A stretch of 44,169 bases of DNA from a virus. Lineage: Duplodnaviria > Heunggongvirae > Uroviricota > Caudoviricetes. Both the position numbers and the translations under genes were made by a program. Below are positions 1,722-27,428 of this stretch, piece by piece. The stretch's first letter is position 1. Each line of letters starts with the position of its first letter. Under the pieces are notes generated by a model. The model searched no databases. It saw only the letters and a program-made list of their open reading frames with translations, and was not told the origin of the DNA. The DNA lies in IMG/VR virus record IMGVR_UViG_2740892274_000005, one strand, 5' to 3'.

Positions 1722-2084
1722 GGGGCTGATTCTGGATTCGACGGGATTTGCGAAACCCAAGGTGCATGCCGAGGGGCGGTTGGCCTCGTAAAAAGCCGCA
1801 AAAAATAGTCGCAAACGACGAAAACTACGCTTTAGCAGCTTAATAACCTGCTTAGAGCCCTCTCTCCCTAGCCTCCGCTCTTAGGACGGGGATCAAGAGA
1901 GGTCAAACCCAAAAGAGATCGCGTGGAAGCCCTGCCTGGGGTTGAAGCGTTAAAACTTAATCAGGCTAGTTTGTTAGTGGCGTGTCCGTCCGCAGCTGGC
2001 AAGCGAATGTAAAGACTGACTAAGCATGTAGTACCGAGGATGTAGGAATTTCGGACGCGGGTTCAACTCCCGCCAGCTCCACCA
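1722..2084 (+). ncRNA. ssrA: tmRNA (transfer-messenger RNA, SsrA), 363 nt
   Basis: Starts GGGGCTGATTCTGGATTCGAC and ends GGGTTCAACTCCCGCCAGCTCCACCA (tRNA-like acceptor/T-arm with encoded CCA). Internal tag reading frame GCAAACGACGAAAACTACGCTTTAGCAGCTTAA = ANDENYALAA-stop. Candidate -10 TATACT at 1702..1707. Confidence 0.97.
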
Positions 2085-2207
2085 CTTTTGACAGGACTGC
2101 AACCGGACAGAGACTATAAAAACAGTCACTTACGGACACTGACCAGACAGTAAGCGGACCAGAAAAAGACAAAAATATACACGCAAAATGCACGTGCATT
2201 TCAAAAA

Positions 2208-2237
2208 AGCCTCTGATTATGAAGTCAGAGGCTTTTC
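2208..2237 (+). terminator. Rho-independent terminator downstream of ssrA
   Basis: Perfect 9-bp stem AGCCTCTGA / TCAGAGGCT (2208..2216 and 2225..2233) with an 8-nt loop, followed by TTTT. Confidence 0.7.
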
Positions 2238-2282
2238 TAGTTGTAAATAAGGGTAACAATTTAACACGATGCAGCTTACCAA

Positions 2283-3134
2283 TTACGTAACATCAAACGC
2301 TCTAATTGTTCCCAAATCCTCCAGACCACTCAGCTCCTCTTTCATTTCACGCTGACGGCGATAAATCTCATCGTTGCGATCGACCTGCGCCTGCACCATT
2401 GCTGCCGCCAGTTCTTCCAGTTCCGGCATCGACAGTTTCACCTGCTGATTATCGGCATCACCCCACGCCATATGCGTTTGTGCTGTGACAGATTTTGCCA
2501 GCATGACTACCGGGGACAGGCGGCCCAGTGAGTNNNNNNNNNNNNNNNNNNNNNNNNNNNNNNNNNNNNNNNNNNNNNNNNNNNNNNNNNNNNNNNNNNN
2601 NNNNNNNNNNNNNNNNNNNNNNNNNNNNNNNNNNNNNNNNNNNNNNNNNNNNNNNNNNNNNNNNNNNNNNNNNNNNNNNNNNNNNNNNNNNNNNNNNNNN
2701 NNNNNNNNNNNNNNNNNNNNNNNNNNNNNNNNNNNNNNNNNNNNNNNNNNNNNNNNNNNNNNNNNNNNNNNNNNNNNNNNNNNNNNNNNNNNNNNNNNNN
2801 NNNNNNNNNNNNNNNNNNNNNNNNNNNNNNNNNNNNNNNNNNNNNNNTTCCATTCAAACGTGAACGGCTTCGCCTCCTGTTCTGTGCGCCATGCTTCAAT
2901 TTCCTGACGTCTGGCCTCTCTGGCCGCTTCCAGCATTTCTGGTGTCACAGTGAATGGGGCTATCTCACCCCATTTGCCACTTTGCAGTTCCTGCCAGATT
3001 CGCTGACCCGTCGGTGCGACATCATCAGCGGTGGCTGTGTAGGGGACTGCCTGGTCCCTGTCGTCAAAAAAAACGTCACAGTCTACTGCGCCACTTTCGG
3101 TATAACGGGGATTAATGATTTTTTTAATTTCCAC
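2283..3134 (-). CDS. Phage protein, possibly tail-fibre assembly/chaperone; interrupted by the N run (may be one or two genes)
   Basis: GTG start at 3134..3132 preceded by GAGGAA with a 6-nt spacer, the RBS overlapping the stop of the upstream tail-fibre gene (cgTGAGGAAtgcaccGTG). N-terminal part VEIKKIINPRYTESGAVDCDVFFDD...; C-terminal part after the gap ends ...GLEDLGTIRAFDVT. Functional call rests on position after a tail-fibre gene and is tentative. Confidence 0.4.
   Translation of the reverse strand: MEIKKIINPRYTESGAVDCDVFFDDRDQAVPYTATADDVAPTGQRIWQELQSGKWGEIAPFTVTPEMLEAAREARRQEIEAWRTEQEAKPFTFEWXXXXXXXXXXXXXXXXXXXXXXXXXXXXXXXXXXXXXXXXXXXXXXXXXXXXXXXXXXXXXXXXXXXXXXXXXXXXXXXXXXXXXXXXXXXXXXXXXXXXXXXXXXSLGRLSPVVMLAKSVTAQTHMAWGDADNQQVKLSMPELEELAAAMVQAQVDRNDEIYRRQREMKEELSGLEDLGTIRAFDVT
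2534..2847. other. Run of 314 N (assembly gap or masked sequence)
   Basis: Uninterrupted n characters from 2534 to 2847. Every tracked ORF containing X runs is an artefact of translating this stretch. Confidence 0.99.
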
Positions 3135-3144
3135 GGTGCATTCC

Positions 3145-4317
3145 TCACGATGTGCGAATAAAAAGCCCGGGCATTGCGCCAGAGACATGAGCATCCGGCA
3201 CCCCGGACAGGGCGCTATATGACCCCGGTAATGAATGCTCTGAACATCCCGTAATGAAAAATTGTGGGGATGCTATATACGTTCCGGTGGGAGTACTGGG
3301 CACTGAAATCCCCACCGGTCCCAGTCGTGAGCCTCTGTATGACTGCCCCCTGACAAGTCTGATGACTTTATCACCGTCAGCTTCTCCCTGGTACGCAGCA
3401 ATAATCAGCCCGCCAATGTCAGGGTCTCCCCATCTGTTGCAGACAGAGCTCGCCACGATTCTGTAAATAATATCTTCTGTGGTTATATTTATTTTCACCC
3501 AGCCAGTCAGTCTGGATATGGGCCAGTAGCAGTAGCGGGTGTGATAAATGGGGCCGTTAATGCCGTAAAAAGTAAGGGATTTGGCTCTGTACCTCGGTTC
3601 TGTTGTCTCAGGGCGTGCATCAGTCCACCGGATGCTGAGCACCCCTTCAAACCGTGTGTCGGGTATGATGATGTCGTAGGGGCCAGCAACGGAATATTCA
3701 CCTGGCAGCGCATTCCTTACCCAGGCCAGGAAATCACTCTTAGTGTCAAAACGGATAACATCTTCAGGCAGAAAAGCACACCCAAAGCCGAATGCGCCGG
3801 GTATCGCCAGACGGCCTTTTGTCCGGTCGTAAATGTCGCTCTGTGCTTCCATCGTGGCCGCACTTTTCAGCCCCAGATTATCCCGGGACTTCTGTTGTGC
3901 CTTTTCGCCTGCTGCTGCGATTTCAGACAGATGGTTAGCCGTTTTCAGAGTGCCGGTCAGCGCAGCATCAATGTCATTTTTGGCCTGCTCTGCTGCGCGG
4001 GCATAACCTGCGGCTGCCGCCACATCCTGCGCCGTCTGCTGTGCGTTTCCGGCTGCGGCCCCGGCGCTCTGCTGCGCCTGCGCCACCATTTCCTCAAAGC
4101 GTTTGACGACATCCGGTTTCAGGTCGCCCTCATCAGGAGCAATCAGAAAGTCATTCAGCGTGCCGGGCTTTGAGTCGTCGTATACAGCAATGTCGCCAAC
4201 GTTGTACTCGTTGTGCCAGCCCGGTTTCAGATACACACCATATTTTCCAGTCCGCGCATGGAAACAGTATTCACCATCGTTTCCTGTCATCACATCAGCA
4301 ACAGTGTGCATCACCAC
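3145..4317 (-). CDS. Phage tail fibre protein, probably a 5'-truncated remnant abutting the IS66 terminus
   Basis: 390-aa translation with an Ala/Gln-rich segment (AQAQQSAGAAAGNAQQTAQDVAAAAGYARAAEQAKNDIDAALTG...) then ...NLGLKSAATMEAQSDIYDRTKGRLAIPGAFGFG..., which resembles side-tail-fibre proteins. The first in-frame Met is only 16 bp from the IS66 end at 4334. Confidence 0.55.
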   Translation of the reverse strand: MVMHTVADVMTGNDGEYCFHARTGKYGVYLKPGWHNEYNVGDIAVYDDSKPGTLNDFLIAPDEGDLKPDVVKRFEEMVAQAQQSAGAAAGNAQQTAQDVAAAAGYARAAEQAKNDIDAALTGTLKTANHLSEIAAAGEKAQQKSRDNLGLKSAATMEAQSDIYDRTKGRLAIPGAFGFGCAFLPEDVIRFDTKSDFLAWVRNALPGEYSVAGPYDIIIPDTRFEGVLSIRWTDARPETTEPRYRAKSLTFYGINGPIYHTRYCYWPISRLTGWVKINITTEDIIYRIVASSVCNRWGDPDIGGLIIAAYQGEADGDKVIRLVRGQSYRGSRLGPVGISVPSTPTGTYIASPQFFITGCSEHSLPGSYSALSGVPDAHVSGAMPGLFIRTS

Positions 4318-4333
4318 TTCCGGGGTGTTTACC

Positions 4334-4360
4334 GTAAGCGTGCAGCAAGAACCGTATTGA
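4334..4360. repeat. IS66-family terminal inverted repeat (right end), begins GTAAGCG
   Basis: GTAAGCGTGCAGCAAGAACCGTATTGA lies 11-37 bp downstream of the tnpC stop (4371). IS66-family IRs characteristically begin 5'-GTAA. Exact IR length not determinable without the other end. Confidence 0.5.
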
Positions 4361-4370
4361 CGGGAATGTG

Positions 4371-4829
4371 TTATTCAGTCGGCAGTGCTACGCGCCAGGG
4401 GAGCAGTTCGCCGACCCGGTTTATCGGCCAGTCGGCTATGACGTCAAGGACATAGCGGAGGTAGCTTTCTGGCTCCACTCCGTTCAGTTTGCACGTCCCG
4501 ATCAGGCTGTACAGCAGCGCTCCCCGCTCTCCTCCATGATCCGAACCGAAGAACAGGTAGTTTTTGCGGCCCAGACTGACCATCCGCAACGCATTTTCAG
4601 CGATGTTATTGTCCGCCTCAGCCCAGCCATCATCTGCATAGTACGTCAGCGCCGGCCACTGGTTCAGGGCATATGCGAACGCTTTCGCCAGTTCTGAGTG
4701 TCGCGACAGGGTTTTCATCTTTTCACGCAGCCAGCTTTCCAGGGATTTCAGCAGCGGTTTCGTTTTCAACTGACGTTCGGCAAGGCGCTGTTTCAGCAGG
4801 AAGATGTCGTCAGAAGAGATGTCGTTCAT
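4371..4829 (-). pseudogene. IS66-family transposase TnpC, C-terminal fragment only (about 150 aa)
   Basis: Translation ...IAENALRMVSLGRKNYLFFGSDHGGERGALLYSLIGTCKLNGVEPESYLRYVLDVIADWPINRVGELLPW... matches the conserved C-terminus of IS66 TnpC. The N-terminal two-thirds is absent; the frame closes just before the prophage right end. Confidence 0.8.
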
Positions 4830-6656: not shown

Positions 6657-6911
6657 TTACATCATGGTACTGTCAGTTCCGGGCTGAGCCGGGTCTGGTT
6701 GCTCTGGCTGCGCGTCGGTTTTCGGCTCATTATCAGCATCACTGGCCGCAACTGCTGGCCCAATAAGTTTTGCCAGCACTTCATCAACGTAAGTGTCGAT
6801 TTGTGCCTCAAAATCCTTGCGGACCTGCGCTTTCAGCAACTTATTTACTTCACCGGAATACAGTGCCTGTTTTACCAGGTCTTCAGTGACGGTGCCTTTA
6901 ATTTCTGGCAT
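6657..6911 (-). CDS. Hypothetical acidic 84-aa protein
   Basis: ATG at 6911 preceded by AAGGAGGA with about 6-nt spacing. Translation MPEIKGTVTEDLVKQALYSGEVNKLLKAQVRKDFEAQIDTYVDEVLAKL... then an acidic/Pro-rich tail. No family recognised. Confidence 0.6.
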   Translation of the reverse strand: MPEIKGTVTEDLVKQALYSGEVNKLLKAQVRKDFEAQIDTYVDEVLAKLIGPAVAASDADNEPKTDAQPEQPDPAQPGTDSTMM

Positions 6912-6946
6912 GTATATCCTCCTTATGCGGGAATAAAGCCCTGCAA

Positions 6947-7129
6947 TCAGGGCTGGGTCGGGTCTTTTGGGAGCGGAGTTACCTGCGCTGTTTTACTGAG
7001 TTTTTCAGCTGCTGCGTCCTCAATTTTGCGGCGAACATAATTTCTGATGGCCTTATAACCACCACTCACCAGATATAACGCACATACTGCCGTGCAGAAA
7101 TACAATAAAATAAGCTGTAAAAATGTCAT
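6947..7129 (-). CDS. Small single-pass membrane protein (60 aa)
   Basis: ATG at 7129..7127 preceded by GGGAGGG. MTFLQLILLYFCTAVCALYLVSGGYK has one N-terminal hydrophobic helix followed by a charged tail. The tracked ORF begins 4 codons earlier. Confidence 0.6.
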   Translation of the reverse strand: MTFLQLILLYFCTAVCALYLVSGGYKAIRNYVRRKIEDAAAEKLSKTAQVTPLPKDPTQP

Positions 7130-7225
7130 TATCCCTCCCAATTATTGACATGGTGTTGACACCGGTAATATCTGTTAGGTAAAAAGGTGCACTGCATTTT
7201 TTGCTTTGGATATAACGATCTTTTT

Positions 7226-7273: not shown

Positions 7274-9328
7274 TTACGCGTTATTCACTTCCACCACGAT
7301 ACTGTCAATCAGTACCGGGTAAGTCGCATTTTTAGTGATATCGGTCACGCGCAACTTGTCTGCCGTAAACGTGCCGACCGGAGACTGCGACAGCATGAAT
7401 GGTGTCCCGTCCTTACCATCAATGACCGGCGTCACCTCAATACTGTTGTTACCGGCAAAACGGAAGCCCAGCGTATGCCATTCGTTATTAAATGCGCCGA
7501 ATGACCCCAGCTTCGTGTTCTGCGCCGTGTTTCCTTTGTGATACATCACGTTAAGGTCTGTGGCATCGCTCTGTACGTAGAACGATGCCAGCAGGTTATG
7601 ACCGGCATTTCCTTCCAGAGTAACCCCTTGCGGCAGGGCAGAAACCGGCCAGTACAGCGCCAGTGCGTACTGATTAGCCGTAAGCGCGCCATCGAGTTTA
7701 AAACGACAACTGACAAGACCACCTTTACCCAGCAGGTCCGCACCATTACCAGCATCATGCTCAAGGTACCAGGGGGCTCTTCCTGTTTCCTTGGTCAGTT
7801 TCATTGCCTTACCCCCGCTGGCTCCGGCATCATCCACGATTTGAGCCTTGCCACCTCCGGCAGCCCAACCCTGTGGTGTCAACCGTCCTTCAGACTCAGA
7901 TGCCCGGTAAGCAAATAGCGTACTCATCGTCGTGGTGTCTGCGGGTGGCGTGGACGGTTTTGATGGTGTATCAGGTGACGGCTTCTCATCCGGTGGTGTC
8001 ACGGTCTGCCCACGCATCAGTTCAGCCGTGCGCCCTGCATGGAGCATAATAGCTGAGGCCAGACGGTCTGAAATGACGCCCCTGCGTGCCCATGAGCTGA
8101 AATGGCTGTCACGCTGTGTCGAAACAAAACTGCCCTGGGTTCGGGATGCTGCACCGTAATACCCGACAGCCACAATATCCGGGTCTTCCGCCGGAGCATT
8201 CGTTGGCGTGCTCTGTCCATTCTCATCCGTCAGGAACGGTACAAAGAAAATTTTCTGTGCTTCCTTGCCTTTGTAGCCACCGTATACTGCCTCATATTTA
8301 TCGGTGCCAGCGTTTTTCCAGTAATACGTGGTATCACCGCAAATCCACGGCACCGTGGTGGCATTTCCACTCACGCACTGCGCAGCAAGCGGAGCCAGGT
8401 CAGTTCTGAACTGCTGAACCATGGCCGTGAATAAACTATTATGCTGCTGGCTTCCTGAGGCAAGGTCTGCCTCTCCCTGCATCCAGACCACAGCCAGAAG
8501 TTTGTTTTTCGGGTTTTTCGCCAGCGCGACTTTGGTGCGGCTTACCAGGTCCTGATACAGAGGTTTACCGGCCCCCCAGCGTGAAGAATCAGCGGAAGCA
8601 CCGCTGGCCTCACTGAATGAGCCGTCGGCTCCAGTGGTGAATGCTGACCCGCCACGACAACAGGGCACCAGAAGTATCCCGGCATTCTGTGGGATATAGG
8701 GAAGCAGTTTTTTGGCAATATGCAACCCCTGACCGACAGTCCCGTACTGGCCTTTTGCCAGATCAGCTTTCGGGTGGTTTATCCCGCTCATATCCTGAAC
8801 ATCATGCAGGCAGTGGTCTGCCGGAATGATGTCGTTGTATGTACACGACGTACCGTTGGGCGTTACCGTACTGCGGCGTGCCAGTTGCTTAATGCGTGGG
8901 TCCGGGCGGTCAAACGAATCCGGTAACGGCAGCCCCTCGCCGTAGGCCATGCCATTTGACTGACCCGCGAGAATGACAACAAAGTAATATTCCGGCTCTG
9001 AACTGCTGCCATTCGTGCTACCGGAAGGCCCGGCGTTATCCGGTGCATTCCAGTCGGAGGGCGTGAGCGTTCCGGCCACGTCAGATGTGATTGGAATGAT
9101 GCCAGTCACGCCTGAACTGGTGATTTCTGCACTGGGATTACCGGATACCGGCATTACCCATAATGGCTCTTTCGTGCTGAAGCGGATCACGCAGTCTGCG
9201 AAGGTGATCCCCCCTTTATTACCCGAAGGGCGGAAAGGGCTTTCAATAAATGCCACCGTGCCACCGGCAACCTTGACTGAAAACTCTCCGGGCATGGCGG
9301 AGAGCATTTTCCACTTGGAGTCTGACAT
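7274..9328 (-). CDS. SGNH/SASA-type carbohydrate esterase-domain protein (sialate O-acetylesterase-like), 684 aa; candidate polysaccharide deacetylase
   Basis: Contains the esterase block YYFVVILAGQSNGMAYGEG (GQSN motif of the SASA/SGNH fold) after an N-terminal region of about 115 aa. C-terminal region of about 250 aa could be a lectin/jelly-roll domain. Not a Mu core gene. Confidence 0.7.
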   Translation of the reverse strand: MSDSKWKMLSAMPGEFSVKVAGGTVAFIESPFRPSGNKGGITFADCVIRFSTKEPLWVMPVSGNPSAEITSSGVTGIIPITSDVAGTLTPSDWNAPDNAGPSGSTNGSSSEPEYYFVVILAGQSNGMAYGEGLPLPDSFDRPDPRIKQLARRSTVTPNGTSCTYNDIIPADHCLHDVQDMSGINHPKADLAKGQYGTVGQGLHIAKKLLPYIPQNAGILLVPCCRGGSAFTTGADGSFSEASGASADSSRWGAGKPLYQDLVSRTKVALAKNPKNKLLAVVWMQGEADLASGSQQHNSLFTAMVQQFRTDLAPLAAQCVSGNATTVPWICGDTTYYWKNAGTDKYEAVYGGYKGKEAQKIFFVPFLTDENGQSTPTNAPAEDPDIVAVGYYGAASRTQGSFVSTQRDSHFSSWARRGVISDRLASAIMLHAGRTAELMRGQTVTPPDEKPSPDTPSKPSTPPADTTTMSTLFAYRASESEGRLTPQGWAAGGGKAQIVDDAGASGGKAMKLTKETGRAPWYLEHDAGNGADLLGKGGLVSCRFKLDGALTANQYALALYWPVSALPQGVTLEGNAGHNLLASFYVQSDATDLNVMYHKGNTAQNTKLGSFGAFNNEWHTLGFRFAGNNSIEVTPVIDGKDGTPFMLSQSPVGTFTADKLRVTDITKNATYPVLIDSIVVEVNNA

Positions 9329-9413
9329 CGTCTTTTCTGCCTGTTTCTGAATTAAACAGAGTCAGAATAGCGACCGCTGAAAAATATGTGTTTTGCGGAA
9401 ATTCAAAAAAGCG

Positions 9414-9986
9414 TCACGGTACTTTTGGTGACGGAGCTGGTGAGGCAGGAAAATAACGATAAAGGGTGGAAAGGCCAATATCAAATATCAGTGCGATTTG
9501 TTTACGGGACTCGCCATTAGCCAGCAAACGGGCGATTTGCTCCCGCTCTTTCTCTGTCAGTTTCTGAGGTCTGCCGCCATGACGCCCCTGAGCACGGGCA
9601 GCAGCAAGACCCGCGCGTGTACGTTCAATAATGAGTTCCCGCTCCATTTCCGCCAGCGCGCCCATTATATGGAAAAAGAAACGTCCCATGGGAGTGGATG
9701 TATCAATATTGTCCGTAATGCTGCGGAAGTTAACGCCGCGTTGCCGGAGTTCTTCTGTTAAAAGGACAAGGTGCTGCATACTGCGTCCAAGGCGATCCAG
9801 TTTCCAGACCAGCAGGGTATCCCCTGGCCGGAGTCGCTTTAATGCGCGTTTAAGTCCGGGACGCTCCCTTGTCTTACCGCTTATTCTGTCTTCGAAAAAC
9901 AGCTCACATCCTGCACATTCCAGCGCATTTCTTTGTAGCGCCGTATTCTGGTCATTTGTTGACACCCTGATATACCCAATCAGCAT
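9414..9986 (-). CDS. gin: Serine recombinase DNA invertase (Gin/Hin/Cin/Pin family)
   Basis: MLIGYIRVSTNDQNTALQRNALECAGCELFFEDRISGKTRERPGLKRALKRLRPGDTLLVWKLDRLGRSM... is near-collinear with Mu Gin as I recall it. Lies immediately beside the invertible segment. Confidence 0.93.
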   Translation of the reverse strand: MLIGYIRVSTNDQNTALQRNALECAGCELFFEDRISGKTRERPGLKRALKRLRPGDTLLVWKLDRLGRSMQHLVLLTEELRQRGVNFRSITDNIDTSTPMGRFFFHIMGALAEMERELIIERTRAGLAAARAQGRHGGRPQKLTEKEREQIARLLANGESRKQIALIFDIGLSTLYRYFPASPAPSPKVP

Positions 9987-10051
9987 ACGATTTCCTTATT
10001 ATAAAAAGCCGGAATTGTCGCATGAGGAATAAAACAGAGTTAATCCTGGCT

Positions 10052-10077
10052 TTCCTGAAAACCTCGGTTTACGGGAA
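10052..10077. promoter_or_regulatory. gix-like crossover site (right border of the invertible segment)
   Basis: Plus strand TTCCTGAAAACCTCGGTTTACGGGAA; its reverse complement TTCCCGTAAACCGAGGTTTTCAGGAA closely matches the Mu gix sequence as I remember it (TTCCTGTAAACCGAGGTTTTGGATAA). It sits exactly where homology between the two repeat blocks ends. Confidence 0.7.
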
Positions 10078-10190
10078 ACGGTAAACAGGGCGGCGAATGC
10101 TCTGCCATCGGACGGCACCGCCGTTGCCGCGAATAGACTCGCCACCCCAAGAAATATTAATGGGGTTCCCTTTGACGGGACGCAGGACAT
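10065..10190. repeat. Inverted repeat block (partner at 11256..11381) inside the invertible segment
   Basis: Plus 10065..10091 CGGTTTACGGGAAACGGTAAACAGGGC is the exact reverse complement of 11355..11381. Tracked ORFs 9999..10199 (-) and 11154..11444 (+) share [26 protein letters not shown] and [11 protein letters not shown], which shows the inverted homology. Confidence 0.85.
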
Positions 10191-10425
10191 AAACATCACT
10201 TCTGGTATAACACAGCAGGATGCGGATTCCCGATATATCCAGGATATCAGGCTGGGAGCAGAGAACAGGCAGGTAATGTACGGTGGGGCATATTACTCTG
10301 CGTACGGTAATGTTATGGCAGGCCTGCAGATTGACAGTAAAGTTGATGCTTCAAACGATTTTATAGCATTCAGACCCCTGCAAAAATTAGTCGGAGGTAC
10401 ATGGATTACGGTATCTCAGTTATAA
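10066..10425 (+). other. Promoterless alternative tail-fibre C-terminal cassette (S'v-like), currently in the off orientation
   Basis: Plus frame from 10066 reads [119 protein letters not shown], stop at 10423..10425. No start codon of its own; it would be fused to the constant fibre part after inversion. C-terminal RPLQKLVGGTW parallels [11 protein letters not shown] of the expressed fibre. Confidence 0.7.
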
Positions 10426-10476
10426 ATAGTCAGTAAATAATATATTTTAAAACAGATTTATTTCCAGGAGGATTTT

Positions 10477-10998
10477 ATGGAACTAAAAAATATAACCCGT
10501 TATTATCCTGAAAATATGCCATATGGTAATAATGTTCAGTATTTCCAGAGTGAAGATGGTAAGGATTTCTACGAATCCCTGCCATTATTCACCAAAAAAT
10601 ATAAACTTTGCATAACACCTGACAGCGGCGTTATCTGCTCAATATCACAGGACGCCTCGGCGCTGTATCCTGCGGGGTTTTCTGTGGTTGAGGTCGATGA
10701 ACTCCCTGAAGGCACGGATATTTCAGGAAACTGGAAGTTTGATAATGGCATAATCTCCCGTATTCCGGTTAACTACGCAAGAAAACTGGAAGCAATGCGC
10801 CAGTCATATCTTAATCAGGCATATGAAAAAATTAATGACTGGAGAACGGAGCTACAACTGGGCACCATCAGCGATGAAGACAGAGCAGCACTTACCCAAT
10901 GGATGGCATACATCAGTCAGGTGAAGAAAATGGAACTACCCGCCATTAAAACAGAAGCTGAATTTAACGCCATTAAATGGCCTGAGCAGCCACAGTAA
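10477..10998 (+). CDS. Tail fibre assembly protein (Tfa/Mu U-type chaperone)
   Basis: 173 aa with AGGAGG upstream. N-terminal region and C-terminal ...AEFNAIKWPEQPQ are typical of the Tfa chaperone family. Follows the alternative fibre cassette on the same strand. Confidence 0.8.
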   Translation: MELKNITRYYPENMPYGNNVQYFQSEDGKDFYESLPLFTKKYKLCITPDSGVICSISQDASALYPAGFSVVEVDELPEGTDISGNWKFDNGIISRIPVNYARKLEAMRQSYLNQAYEKINDWRTELQLGTISDEDRAALTQWMAYISQVKKMELPAIKTEAEFNAIKWPEQPQ

Positions 10999-11001
10999 TA
11001 A

Positions 11002-11021
11002 AGAAGGCCGGAAGGCCTTCT
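11002..11021. terminator. Hairpin between the convergent Tfa and tail-fibre genes (possible bidirectional terminator)
   Basis: AGAAGGCC GGAA GGCCTTCT is a perfect 8-bp stem with a 4-nt loop between the stops at 10998 (+) and 11030 (-). The flanking T/A runs are weak. Confidence 0.45.
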
Positions 11022-11029
11022 GAATATCA

Positions 11030-11911
11030 TTATATACTTGCAGCCGTCACCCATGCTCCATTTAACAGATACTGCAACGGCCGGTAATACACGCCGCCGA
11101 CGTTATCTGCCGTATTCTTACCGACATCCTGTACTTTAATTCCGGTAAGAACATTGCCGCCCCCCAGATTCAGATCCCAGCTTTCCCATGTTCCGGGCAT
11201 ATGTGCGGTCACCGACCCCAGTCTTATGGCGGTTACTGTTCCTGATGAGATAGTGATATCCTGCGTCCCGTCAAAGGGAACACCATTAATTGTGTGGGCA
11301 TTTGCCAGCCTGTTCGCGGCAACGGCGGTGCCGTCCGATGGCAGGGCATTCGCCGCCCTGTTTACCGTTTCCCGTAAACCGACGTTATCGATAAAAGCCC
11401 CTTTATCCGGAATGTCTGCGCCGTTCTGCTCCCTGCGCAGGTAACGGTTATCACCTTCGCTTTTGCTGTAAACATCCAGATTATTACGGGCGGTTCCCTT
11501 ATTCTCCAGGTCGGCGAGATTCTGATCCTTCGCCAGGGCATTAACGTCAGCGGGACCAAGACTGTTTTTTGTGGCAAGCGTCCCCAGACCAAGATAACCA
11601 CGGGCCAGACGCTGGGCCTCCGCACCGGCATCAGCAATTTCTTTCAGGTTATTTTTCCGGGAAAAGGCATTCGCAGCGATAATGGCTTTAATGGACAGCG
11701 TAAGCTGGTTTAACTGCGCCTTATCCGGCTGAATACTGGCTTCAGCCAGAATATTCAGCAGTTCGGCCTGGAGAATATTCAGCCAGTCCTGACCAATCCA
11801 GCTGATACCTTTTTGTCCGTCACCTTCGGTAAACCAGGTGGTGGTATTACTCTGCGCCGGTGCCAGCGCAGGCATATTCGCCACGCCGGAATTATTATCA
11901 ACATGAAACAT
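11030..11911 (-). CDS. Tail fibre protein (Mu S-like), constant N-terminal part fused to the currently selected variable C-terminus
   Basis: N-terminus [43 protein letters not shown] resembles Mu-type fibre proteins. C-terminus ...[22 protein letters not shown]. The gene spans the left gix-like site. Confidence 0.8.
11256..11381. repeat. Inverted repeat block (partner at 10065..10190)
   Basis: Same evidence as for 10065..10190. Encodes the fibre segment [24 protein letters not shown]...[12 protein letters not shown] shared by both alternative C-termini. Confidence 0.85.
11369..11394. promoter_or_regulatory. gix-like crossover site (left border), inside the tail-fibre gene
   Basis: Plus strand TTCCCGTAAACCGACGTTATCGATAA, in inverted orientation relative to the site at 10052..10077. 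Confidence 0.7.
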
Positions 11912-12471
11912 TAAATAGTCTCCTCTTCATGGCTGTTTGCATAAACGTAAATAAACGTCTGCCATGCAGGCTTATAACGGTTCAGAATACATTCCAGCGC
12001 ACCGCCTTCATAAATACGCAGCGGCGTGAGAATATCATCCAGCACATTCATATTCCGGTAGCCGGTTTCACTGTTAATCGTGACAATACTGACCCACTGC
12101 GAATCCGGTGAGGGCTGAATGTCAATCTGATAACCAAACTCCGCCGCAAACCGGATATAAAATTCACGGTTCAGCGAGGGCTTCATCCGGTATTTATTTC
12201 CGGCATAACGCTGTCGCTCCGTGAGGGTGGCTCCGGCCATATCACACTCGGGAAGCCCGAGATAACGCTCCCAGTCTTCCAGCAGCAGGCGCGACGTGTC
12301 AGGGAAACGCTCGGCAAGCAGCTGTTTACCCGTCCAGGATACACGCGCTGTCGAATGACTGAGGCCCAGACATAATGATGCCAGTACGGATGACGGACGC
12401 TTGTCCCATGCCAGCCCGTCAGGCAGTAACTGCAACAGGGCGCGCTGATGCGGGGTCAGGGTTACAGCCAT
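11911..12471 (-). CDS. Baseplate/tail protein (Mu gp48-like)
   Basis: 186 aa, translationally coupled between the baseplate J-like gene and the fibre gene. Assigned by position in the Mu-type tail module. Confidence 0.6.
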
Positions 12472-13544
12472 GTGATTTCTCCTACCGTCAGCAGCTCACT
12501 GTCTCCCGCCTGAACTGACGTCAGCGGACTGCGCACTTCAAAATCCTCCAGATTTTTCACCCCTGCCACCGCCCGCCAGAAAGACGACGGCAGAACCAGA
12601 CCGCCGGGCCGGGATTCGTTATACAACAGGTCGGTCAGCGCCTGTTTTACGGCCGCCTGATTCTCCGGTGTTTTCGGGATGATCCTGATGCTGAAGGGCA
12701 CCGGCTTATTGGTCAGTTTAAACACGGTCACCGTCGGCCCCAGAGGCTGTCCGACAGGCTGGCCGGTCGCCGGATCATCATGACTGCGGATATAATCCGC
12801 CACCCGCTGAACATCACCGTCACCGGGGAAAATATCCGGGTTATTATCCTGAACAAACGTTACCCCCACGCTGCCCGCCTGCGGCCATTCCGGGCGGCAC
12901 CATGCCCGCGTCACGCCCGGCACTTCACGCGCCCAGCGTTCAAAATCATACTGCGTGCCGCCGGACGGTGGATTCTGCACCCGGAAAACCAGACGGGAAA
13001 GCAGCTCCGGCACGGTTTCCACATCCGCACCACCGGTGATCCCCGTTCCGGTCACCGTGGCCGTCTGGTTGATCCCCGCCTGCGGTGTGATAAATGTCAG
13101 TTTTGTCCCTGCCGGGGCATTCCCCGCACGACCGGCACTTTCGGCTTCCACACTGACATTCAGCGTACCGGCCTTACCGGTCAGGGAGGTGGTGATACGG
13201 TAAACCACGCCATCACTTCGCTGGAGAAGCACACCTTCCTTGATCCCCGCATCCGTGGTCAGCATCAGCTGAACCGGCCCGTCCCCCCGAGAGGCAGGCT
13301 TACGCATGACGCCCCAGAATGCACAGTGTTTCAGCAGTTCGGCTTCATCGGCTTCGGTCGGGATGATCTGACGCGCAATCCAGGCCAGATGCTCATGCTC
13401 CTGAGCAGATAACCCTGCCTGAGCGTAAGCAATGGCATTCAGGGTGGTTTCATTCACACCCGGCTGCGAGCCGGGCAGGCGCTGGCTGATATCCTGCTGT
13501 GTCTGCGTGATTAACTGTGCCAGCGGTAAAGGCTGATAAGGCAT
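12462..13544 (-). CDS. Baseplate J-like protein (Mu gp47 family)
   Basis: 360 aa, overlaps both neighbours. Size and position match the baseplate J family in Mu/P2-type tails. Confidence 0.7.
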   Translation of the reverse strand: MPYQPLPLAQLITQTQQDISQRLPGSQPGVNETTLNAIAYAQAGLSAQEHEHLAWIARQIIPTEADEAELLKHCAFWGVMRKPASRGDGPVQLMLTTDAGIKEGVLLQRSDGVVYRITTSLTGKAGTLNVSVEAESAGRAGNAPAGTKLTFITPQAGINQTATVTGTGITGGADVETVPELLSRLVFRVQNPPSGGTQYDFERWAREVPGVTRAWCRPEWPQAGSVGVTFVQDNNPDIFPGDGDVQRVADYIRSHDDPATGQPVGQPLGPTVTVFKLTNKPVPFSIRIIPKTPENQAAVKQALTDLLYNESRPGGLVLPSSFWRAVAGVKNLEDFEVRSPLTSVQAGDSELLTVGEITWL

Positions 13545-25975: not shown

Positions 25976-26096
25976 ATTGCCTCCGCATAAAGGATGAATA
26001 TAAAATAAACAGGCGGTCAGTGTACGCTTAACTGGTAAAGTCGGTGCCTGCCTCCGGGTGGATCATGTATGCGGGTTCGACCCCCGCCACTGACCG

Positions 26097-27428
26097 TTAA
26101 TCAATTTGTCCTTCCAGCACCTCAAGCATTCCGCCCCGGATATCCGATTTCAGCTTATCCATATTGATAACCCGGTAAGCATTCACAATCACATCCAGTT
26201 TGTCGGGCTGACGTTTCAGACTGTACGGTGCATTAACGGCAATCTGCACACTGCCATCCTGATTTTCCACGATATACATCAGATTGTTGTGCCGTTTGTC
26301 CCACAGTACCGCTTTTGGCCTTGCCAGCATTGCCGGTAAGCGCCCGAAGTCCTCCGGCGTCAGAGCGATGCCGTCATTCTGATGTTTCACACTGTCCGCA
26401 TGGAGCACATTTTTACCGCTCATCGCCAGCAGGCGGGCCGGTGGCGTTCCCGTCCGGCTTTCCACTGCCTGCGCAATGCTTTCAGTCATAAAGCCCAGCG
26501 TGCGGATATCGTTACCACCTCGCCGGGTCTGCATGATGTTTTTTGCCCAGATGCGGAACGCCAGCTGCCGCTCCGGGCTGTTGTTCATCTCCTGAACCAC
26601 CATTTCCCGTAACGCCGGGCTTTTCACCTCGATCAGTTTGCGGATCAGCGCCTGGTCTGTGCCGAACGCTGCCGAGCCGGGGTTATATGACCAGCCCACA
26701 TCCGGTGTCATGGTTCTGGCGCCATCTGAATATGTGGTCACCGGCATTTCTCTGACTTCTCCGGTCTGTTTATCCACGCCAGCCTCAACATTGCGGGTGG
26801 AGAGATGATCCTCACCGGATGAAACGGATAACCCCATTGCATCCAGACGGGCCTGAGACAATGGCCGCACACGGCAGCGGCAGTTCCAGCCATTGGGCGG
26901 GTAGTGTGTTTTCCAGAACGGATCGTCATAGCGGAATACCAGACCGTTAAGGGCGGAATGCGACGGGCGGGTACGGCTGTCCATGACCGCCACATACTGC
27001 CAGAACGGATGCGTGTCCGTGTTGTTCATCATCTGCGTGTAACGCCCGGCATTGTAAGCCACACGGGTGTTCACGTTGTAAATCAGCGCCAGACGACGGG
27101 GACTGCCCTGCTGCACTTCTTCCGCGTTACCGTCGCTGTCCACCACAATCTGCTTTCCCCACCATCCCAGCTTTTGCAGGCGTGGCGTCAGTGTGCGGAT
27201 AAATTCTTTCTGTGAAATCCCCTCATCAATGGCCCGCTGCACTTCGGCCTGTAATGTGGTTACCACATCCAGCCGTGCCGTTTTTGCTGCCGTGAATGAG
27301 CGGGCATGAACATCCGCGTCTGTTTCGAACCAGTTCCAGCTGATATGCGCCCCTTTGGCGCGGAAGTATGCCACCGTCTCTTTTGAGGGAAGCGTGGCGG
27401 CATAACCTAAATCAATCCCCTGAGCCAT
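26097..27428 (-). CDS. Head morphogenesis / minor capsid protein (Mu F, gp30-like)
   Basis: 443 aa immediately downstream of the portal gene. Confidence 0.8.
   Translation of the reverse strand: MAQGIDLGYAATLPSKETVAYFRAKGAHISWNWFETDADVHARSFTAAKTARLDVVTTLQAEVQRAIDEGISQKEFIRTLTPRLQKLGWWGKQIVVDSDGNAEEVQQGSPRRLALIYNVNTRVAYNAGRYTQMMNNTDTHPFWQYVAVMDSRTRPSHSALNGLVFRYDDPFWKTHYPPNGWNCRCRVRPLSQARLDAMGLSVSSGEDHLSTRNVEAGVDKQTGEVREMPVTTYSDGARTMTPDVGWSYNPGSAAFGTDQALIRKLIEVKSPALREMVVQEMNNSPERQLAFRIWAKNIMQTRRGGNDIRTLGFMTESIAQAVESRTGTPPARLLAMSGKNVLHADSVKHQNDGIALTPEDFGRLPAMLARPKAVLWDKRHNNLMYIVENQDGSVQIAVNAPYSLKRQPDKLDVIVNAYRVINMDKLKSDIRGGMLEVLEGQID

Follow-up and report, generated by a model that had tools for sequence, protein, structure and literature searches.

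Invertible segments that exchange the tips of phage tail fibres, among them the G segment of Mu with gin, the C segment of P1 with cin and the P segment of e14 with pin, are textbook systems, and those of Mu and P1 encode both fibre tips, each with its own chaperone (U and U′). What becomes of the fibre when such a segment carries two tips and a single chaperone gene? The question is raised by a 44,169-nucleotide virus sequence (IMG/VR record IMGVR_UViG_2740892274_000005; this whole stretch is referred to as the window), in which a segment of about 1.3 kb, adjacent to a gene for a Gin-type serine DNA invertase, holds two alternative fibre C-termini and one tail-fibre assembly gene, tfa. An initial annotation, made from the sequence without database searches, had read the segment as an invertible fibre switch whose two host-range states may differ in chaperone dependence. 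Our analysis leaves very little doubt that the locus is a Gin/gix switch with in-frame exchange of fibre tips. As to the chaperone, we favour, with a probability of roughly 0.55, the reading that the orientation in which the fibre gene is not followed by tfa (the Tfa-less state) is functional and that its fibre is assembled without a co-transcribed chaperone, so that the two states would differ in Tfa supply or decoration.

Inversion of the fibre segment

Two 26-bp gix sites, mutually inverted and bearing the complementary central dinucleotides TC and GA that inversion requires, lie at the outer ends of an inverted repeat and bound the ~1.3-kb segment (Table 1). They are located where the initial annotation had placed them, and alignment to known crossover sites showed that they match the gix site of SfMu at 21-23 of 26 positions and are conserved in the related loci L001, L005-L008, L010 and L014. 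A repeat search resolved the inverted repeat into two pairs of arms, 10057-10142 with 11304-11389 (86 nt, 93% identity) and 10156-10205 with 11241-11290 (50 nt, 84% identity), which total ~150 bp; the shared inverted block of the annotation is thus present and is longer than the ~125 bp ascribed to it. The neighbouring invertase gene, also as annotated, is an intact open reading frame (ORF), whose product has the Pfam domains Resolvase (E=1.6e-51) and HTH_7 (E=4.9e-15), carries the catalytic Ser9 in the motif IGYIRVSTNDQ and is 75% identical to SfMu Gin. The 5′ region of gin aligns with that of SfMu gin and contains a Fis-like 15-mer near position +146 relative to the start codon; scanning this part of the gene for an enhancer with a simple Fis consensus gave no matching site pair common to both phages.

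The fibre belongs to PHROG 1833 (tail fiber protein), and its residues 1-191 align with residues 1-184 of the Mu tail fibre S (PDB 5YVQ_A / 8JU3_A, E ~1e-46). The fibre-side gix site falls on codons for G-L-(R/Q)-E-T-V-N that are homologous to Mu's. Each variable end is made up of a 47-aa (amino acid) linker, encoded by the inverted repeat, and a tip of ~70 aa; the ~250-residue shaft of Mu S is absent. Tip A, which completes the fibre in the window, aligns with residues 423-488 of Mu S′ and shares 45-55% identity with the tips of P1, SfMu and P2 gpH (55% with a P1-like tip). Tip C, encoded by the silent frame that terminates in ...FRPLQKLVGGTWITVSQL, aligns with residues 435-502 of Mu S and shares 44-47% identity with P2-like gpH and P7 Sv′ tips (44% with P7 Sv′). 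Both C-termini were as the annotation had read them, the expressed one on the minus strand and a promoterless alternative on the plus strand, and inversion in silico at the gix centres exchanged them in frame, yielding a 296-aa fibre with tfa starting 51 nt later.

The flipped arrangement also exists in nature. In E. coli NCCP 13983 (locus L001), positions 2249-3600 are the reverse complement of window positions 10048-11399, with 99% identity and collinear flanks, and in the Prokaryotic Genome Annotation Pipeline (PGAP) annotation of this locus a 296-aa fibre gene is followed by tfa on the same strand. We took a census of orientations among 5,426 complete E. coli genomes, counting as a match at least 80% of a 2.7-kb probe in either the window or the in-silico flipped form. 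Window-type prophages were oriented as in the window in 21 genomes and flipped in 6. Junction probes for the Sp18-type lineage, for their part, found the constant fibre part joined to the tip lacking tfa in 184 genomes and to the tfa-linked tip in 15. Across assemblies, then, the Tfa-less state is seen in ~205 genomes and the other in 21, a ratio of ~10:1 that is confounded by clonal relatedness, many of the genomes being of lineages of E. coli that produce Shiga toxin (STEC), and that does not represent independent trials; both states occur in both lineages. The two orientations that the annotation had predicted are thus on record. Two copies in opposite orientation share the chromosome in strains DLI.5a (NZ_CP103972), TOE17 (NZ_CP069093) and AST46 (NZ_AP043639), in which a supply of Tfa in trans is possible.

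These observations contradict the view that the inverted repeat is a fossil, the segment no longer inverting and the silent cassette being a leftover. The arms are merely 84-93% identical, as such a view might lead one to expect; however, both orientations occur among prophages that are >99% identical, even within single genomes, the invertase ORF retains its Ser9 motif, and the cores and central dinucleotides of gix have been kept from one lineage to another. We give this view almost no credence and conclude that the Mu G-segment host-range switch is present here in a functional and minimised form.

A single tfa gene across the family

The tfa product matches the Pfam family Caudo_TAP (PF02413; E=4.8e-19, 69.2 bits against a cut-off of 22.1) and PHROG 136, and it is homologous to Mu U (PDB 5YVQ_B, E=4.2e-16, residues 18-153). 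A Tfa profile hidden Markov model (HMM), built from 11 diverse seeds and run on all ORFs of the window at E<=10, found no second Tfa there, and the PGAP annotation of an identical copy also lists one. The pairing of the only Tfa gene with the silent cassette, as described in the annotation, is therefore correct, and no second chaperone for the current fibre, which the annotation had said would count against it, was found elsewhere in the prophage by the HMM or in the PGAP annotation. One candidate, a DUF4376-type ORF at 2283-3194, was rejected as a second chaperone of the prophage: it belongs to another, truncated fibre module beyond the Mu right end and is missing at other insertion sites of the Mu-like prophage.

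A single tfa next to the invertase-proximal tip is likewise the arrangement in the E. coli loci L005, L006, L007, L008 (Sp18 type, next to dusA) and L010, the last being a Mu-like insert in the record of a Shiga toxin (Stx) phage. A survey based on the constant fibre part, with one genome per species, gave 8 loci, of which only that of Citrobacter braakii (L014) was informative; its constant fibre part is 75% identical, and it has the same asymmetry with different modules. We also surveyed 80 IMG/VR loci with Gin relatives, a sample biased toward relatives of the window's invertase. Both gix-like sites and a complete segment were present in 36 of the 80, with two Tfa genes in 14/36 and one in 22/36. 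Seventeen of these 22 single-Tfa loci fall in the window's family (Tfa-less orientation in 13, flipped in 4), while the remaining 5 are other P2-like phages (L044, L055, L076, L082 and L099); L033 and the Mu-like L096 are further single-Tfa loci outside the 36. Thus, invertible segments with a single Tfa gene occur commonly in public data, and the rarity that the initial annotation implied was overstated. The one-tfa layout is conserved throughout the family, including O157 Sakai-type Sp18-like prophages, in >200 E. coli genomes. Local deletion as the cause of the single tfa was rejected, since L005-L008, L010 and the IMG/VR loci have the same layout.

Five tip types (A-E) all share a C-terminal Y/F-R-P-x-Q...G-x-W motif. 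Judged by sequence, tips A and C are both of the Mu S/P2 H class of Tfa-dependent tips. The invertase-distal tips A and B have been exchanged as modules, with their frames intact. Some relatives are degraded: the invertase of L006 is frameshifted, the fibre gene of L007 is broken, and L002 is without the invertase gene and the proximal tip. The loss in L002 (E. coli M3, NZ_CP010183; 1530-2390), also seen in M1, M18 and CI5, corresponds to window 9481-10455 and covers most of gin, the invertase-side gix and the proximal tip, leaving tip A expressed and the convergent tfa intact. Such a derivative is in effect a prophage locked in the Tfa-less state.

Chaperone supply in the two states

The tfa gene is co-oriented with the silent tip C, has a strong AGGAGG ribosome-binding site before it and is convergent with the fibre gene. 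The hairpin that separates the two stop codons is GC-rich, with a stem of 8 bp and folding energies of -15.9 and -14.8 kcal/mol (z ~-3.8). Its U-rich tail is found on the fibre (minus) strand only, and it is terminator-like on that strand by terminator scan and folding; the annotation was right that the expressed fibre ends at a hairpin with no chaperone downstream. A search for structured RNA gave no Rfam match in 9000-12500 at E<=1.

We then looked for promoters that could drive tfa in the window orientation. When L005, L008 and the window were scanned for the sigma-70 consensus, no such promoter was detected on the tfa strand upstream of tfa, activator-dependent late promoters being undetectable by this means, and inspection by eye of the gin-gix spacer and the inverted-repeat arm revealed no convincing inward-reading promoter. 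The motif TTAT-N6-ATAA, which we take to be the Mu C-protein box, has a single occurrence in the window, at 6923, no more than expected by chance. Alignment across lineages showed three unrelated types of spacer, 51-121 bp long, upstream of tfa, and this lack of relatedness argues against a conserved dedicated tfa promoter. Four lineages (L005, 2617-2703; L002, L006 and L007) have a non-coding element of ~85 bp between the proximal-tip stop codon and tfa, which starts with a small hairpin (CTGAAA...TTTCAG) and is lacking in the window and the Sp18 type, where the spacers are 51 and 79 bp, respectively.

This arrangement leads us to propose the following mechanism. Late minus-strand transcription would pass through the baseplate genes gp47 and gp48 before entering the fibre gene, whose constant part ends at gix. 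In the window orientation, tip A would complete the fibre and transcription would meet the hairpin; tfa, which lies past the hairpin on the opposite strand, would hence not be co-transcribed. Recombination of the gix sites by Gin would flip the 1.3-kb segment, such that tip C would complete the fibre in frame and tfa would follow 51 nt on. In this flipped state, Tfa would be abundant together with tip C and may stay on the fibre tip, as in Mu. The Tfa-less state would be a working state and not an off state, in which tip A does without a co-transcribed chaperone for its assembly, having become Tfa-independent or needing no more than a small supply or one in trans. The Mu precedent for a role of Tfa in fibre-tip trimerisation and for its retention on the virion is summarised in PMC9608196.

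A working Tfa-less state is favoured by the position of tfa, which converges on the fibre gene with a stable hairpin in between and lacks a sigma-70-like promoter in three lineages. Furthermore, the invertase-distal tips appear from their substitution patterns to be under strong purifying selection (dN/dS of 0.07-0.09 for tip A, in comparison with L006 and L007, and 0.10 for tip B, with dS ~0.5-0.8), which, together with the ~10:1 majority, indicates that the Tfa-less state is probably functional. When a Mu-type phage forms a new lysogen, the lysogen takes over the orientation from which the fibres of the infecting particle were made. If inversion is slow, the orientation bias would therefore mean that the Tfa-less fibre is the form that infects E. 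coli.

The same observations bear on the possibility that the window orientation is OFF or defective, tip-A fibres misfolding without Tfa and infectivity being subject to on/off phase variation; relatedly, the family could be the decaying descendant of a two-Tfa segment that has lost one chaperone. In Mu, P2 and lambda, tips of the Mu S/P2 H class depend on Tfa, for which there is a single gene here, and the degraded relatives L006, L007 and L002 would be in keeping with decay. However, an OFF state is difficult to reconcile with a dN/dS of 0.07-0.10 in the distal tips at dS ~0.5-0.8, with the frames kept intact when modules A and B were exchanged, and with a majority of ~205 to 21, which is what one expects if Tfa-less virions infect E. 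coli. The asymmetry is, moreover, the same in Citrobacter and in unrelated P2-like segments. We consider an OFF state unlikely.

The proposal of the initial annotation that the two states differ in chaperone dependence thus draws support from the convergent tfa and the terminator, from the lack of a sigma-70-like promoter on the tfa strand in three lineages, from the constraint on the distal tips and from the orientation bias. Several points weigh against it and against our favoured reading alike. Tips A and C are homologous to the Tfa-binding tip of Mu S/S′; their nearest homologues inspected (P1-like, P2, SfMu, CR3 and pPE4) are each directly followed by tfa; and tip B, the other tip that goes without Tfa in this family, shares 53% identity with the tip linked to tfa in Citrobacter. 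Such tips are thus Tfa clients elsewhere. The sigma-70 scan is blind to activator-dependent late promoters, and the clonal relatedness within the census tells on the same side. Finally, the Tfa N-domain, which is the fibre-binding part in Mu (PMC9608196), is 73-96% identical across lineages whose adjacent tips share 30-41%. This constancy beside divergent tips suggests, as far as sequence comparison goes, that Tfa is a generalist and might be able to serve the two tips alike.

It is possible, then, though we lean away from it, that one generalist Tfa serves both tips and is expressed in both orientations, in which case the states would differ in receptor specificity only. Tfa could be made from an activator-dependent promoter on the invertase side or within the segment, from sister copies that flip during replicative transposition, or from a second prophage copy. 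The constancy of the N-domain, which does not co-vary with either tip type, fits such a generalist, as do the motif shared by all five tip types, their homology to the Mu S/S′ tips, the invariable presence of tfa in cis with the homologous tips inspected in other phages, the Tfa-linked B-like tip of Citrobacter and the existence of genomes with two opposite-orientation copies. By contrast, expression in both orientations is not readily accommodated by the absence, in three lineages, of a sigma-70-like site on the tfa strand upstream of tfa, by spacers of 51-121 bp that are unrelated where a dedicated promoter would be conserved, or by a tfa gene that converges with the fibre gene across a stable hairpin; the orientation bias suggests slow inversion and hence few sister flips per lytic cycle.

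Returning to a functional Tfa-less state, we tentatively suggest a more specific form of it, to which we would not commit ourselves: the switch may toggle the receptor-binding tip together with the use of Tfa to build and cap the fibre. Tips A and B would be evolved Mu S-type tips that fold without a dedicated chaperone, and the proximal tips C, D and E would use a generalist Tfa that remains attached to the fibre and takes part in host binding.

Prophage context and comparison with known switches

The window holds a complete Mu-like prophage, encoded on the minus strand at ~5000-43400 and running from transposase genes near 42 kb to com/mom at ~5.0-6.0 kb; it is an Sp18-like, Mu-family prophage of E. 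coli. Head, tail and baseplate genes follow the usual Mu order in the PGAP annotation of another E. coli genome with an identical copy of the fibre region, and the switch comes last in the tail operon in the direction of the minus strand.

Table 1 Features of the invertible fibre region and adjoining genes (window coordinates)
Feature	Position	Strand	Details
gp47	12462-13544	-	Baseplate_J
gp48/YmfQ	11911-12471	-	
Tail-fibre gene	11030-11911	-	293 aa
Constant 5′ fibre part (Sc)	11395-11911	-	outside the invertible segment
gix site, fibre side	11369-11394		TTCCCGTAAACC-GA-CGTTATCGATAA; within the fibre ORF; 3/26 positions differ from SfMu gix
Inverted-repeat arm, fibre side	11241-11389		repeat search
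Expressed variable fibre C-terminus	11030-11368	-	~47-aa linker (encoded by the inverted repeat) and 69-aa tip A
Central hairpin	11002-11021		between the convergent stop codons of the fibre gene and tfa
tfa	10477-10998	+	sole tail-fibre assembly gene of the prophage
Silent fibre C-terminus	10066-10425	+	linker and 72-aa tip C; no start codon of its own at the 5′ end
Inverted-repeat arm, invertase side	10057-10205		repeat search
gix site, invertase side	10052-10077		TTCCTGAAAACC-TC-GGTTTACGGGAA; reverse complement matches SfMu gix at 21/26
Gin-type serine DNA invertase	9414-9986	-	190 aa

Between gin and com/mom, where Mu has nothing, lies an esterase cassette. It encodes a 684-aa protein (7274-9328, minus strand) with a sialate O-acetylesterase (SASA) domain and a C-terminal DUF6645 (PHROG 143), followed by small DUF1378 and DUF826 ORFs at 6947-7141 and 6657-6911, both on the minus strand. 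The SASA-DUF6645 protein may be encoded as cargo or may be a second tail protein, one that modifies the receptor. The trio of SASA, DUF1378 and DUF826 recalls the NanS-p esterase region that Stx phages carry downstream of stx (PMC10462455). The equivalent position in the Citrobacter locus L014 is taken by a collagen-repeat fibre gene and a DUF4376 assembly-like gene.

The Mu-like prophage is inserted into the remnant of another prophage beside the tmRNA gene ssrA (ssrA, 1722-2084; region, 1722-4829). The remnant comprises an N-terminally truncated fibre gene of the 'prophage tail fibre N-terminal' type (phage_tail_N; 3145-4317, minus strand), an IS66 transposase fragment (4371-4829, minus strand) and the DUF4376-type Tfa-like ORF discussed above (minus strand), inside which there is a masked run of N. 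In the NZ_AP022815 copy, PGAP lists a 'tRNA-OTHER' between the virion morphogenesis and minor head genes (~window 26021-26100); ARAGORN found no tRNA at this place in the window.

The locus is closest in kind to the Mu G segment with gin, and to those of D108, SfMu and Shigella boydii (the B segment with pinB), with which it shares the serine invertase and gix sites with a GA core. The order gp47, gp48, fibre, segment, gin, com and mom is that of Mu, the fibre N-terminus has its homologue in Mu S and Tfa in Mu U. Compared with Mu, the segment is shorter (1.3 kb against ~3 kb), and so are the variable parts (linker and tip; ~115 aa against ~320 aa), in which the Mu shaft is missing; one tfa stands in place of U and U′, leaving the invertase-distal tip without tfa, and the esterase cassette intervenes between gin and com/mom. 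The canonical content of two ends and two chaperones (Sv-U, U′-Sv′) is thus not that of the window, whereas SfMu and a P1-like phage carry two convergent chaperone genes. A Gin-family invertase likewise switches alternative fibre C-termini in P1 (the C segment with cin) and in P7, which, however, have two convergent chaperone genes and very long fibres.

Among one-tfa relatives, the Sp18-type prophages of E. coli O157:H7 Sakai and other STEC (L008 and L010) have the same architecture as the window, with 99% identity in the constant fibre part, 78% in the invertase and 61% in Tfa; they carry tips B and D instead of A and C and a different spacer upstream of tfa. The window's prophage family is already on record (Asadulghani et al.), and Sp18 has been described as efficiently packaged and as possessing an invertible region for host specificity whose genes differ from those of Mu (PMC2669165). 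We found no discussion of one-chaperone segments, Sp18 included, in the literature searchable here. The IMG/VR loci L033, L044, L055, L076, L082, L096 and L099 resemble the window in having a Gin relative, two gix-like sites, two tips and one tfa. In these P2-like and other Mu-like loci, however, the Tfa-less tip (for example ...GFSWRVYAPV or ...YWFALGRV) differs in sequence class from the Tfa-linked tip (...RPRNIAFNYIVRAA), whereas both tips of the window are of one Tfa-dependent class.

Mutants of T4 gene 37 bypass the chaperone gp38, and lambda Tfa substitutes for gp38. Tips can thus lose the need for a chaperone when the fibre changes, and chaperones of the Tfa type can work on fibres other than their own, two behaviours that match the two leading explanations considered here; the T4 cases are laboratory mutants and complementation in another fibre family, as opposed to an evolved, switchable arrangement. 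The kind of switch described here is textbook and its one-tfa form a variant, which leaves current understanding unchallenged.

Tail-fibre chaperones constrain the engineering of phage and tailocin host range, since a swapped tip usually needs a matching Tfa. Tips of the Tfa-dependent class that are apparently used without a co-transcribed Tfa occur in the present family alongside a Tfa that accepts very dissimilar partners; if one or other of these properties is real, it would supply tips that need no chaperone or a chaperone of broad compatibility. Should the switch indeed toggle the use of Tfa along with the tip, it would constitute a natural experiment on what makes a fibre tip chaperone-dependent. 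The finding therefore poses a clean experimental question on Tfa dependence and Tfa promiscuity. The family is widespread in pathogenic E. coli, including the O157 Sakai-type Sp18, and the 10:1 orientation bias suggests which fibre form mediates its spread among E. coli.

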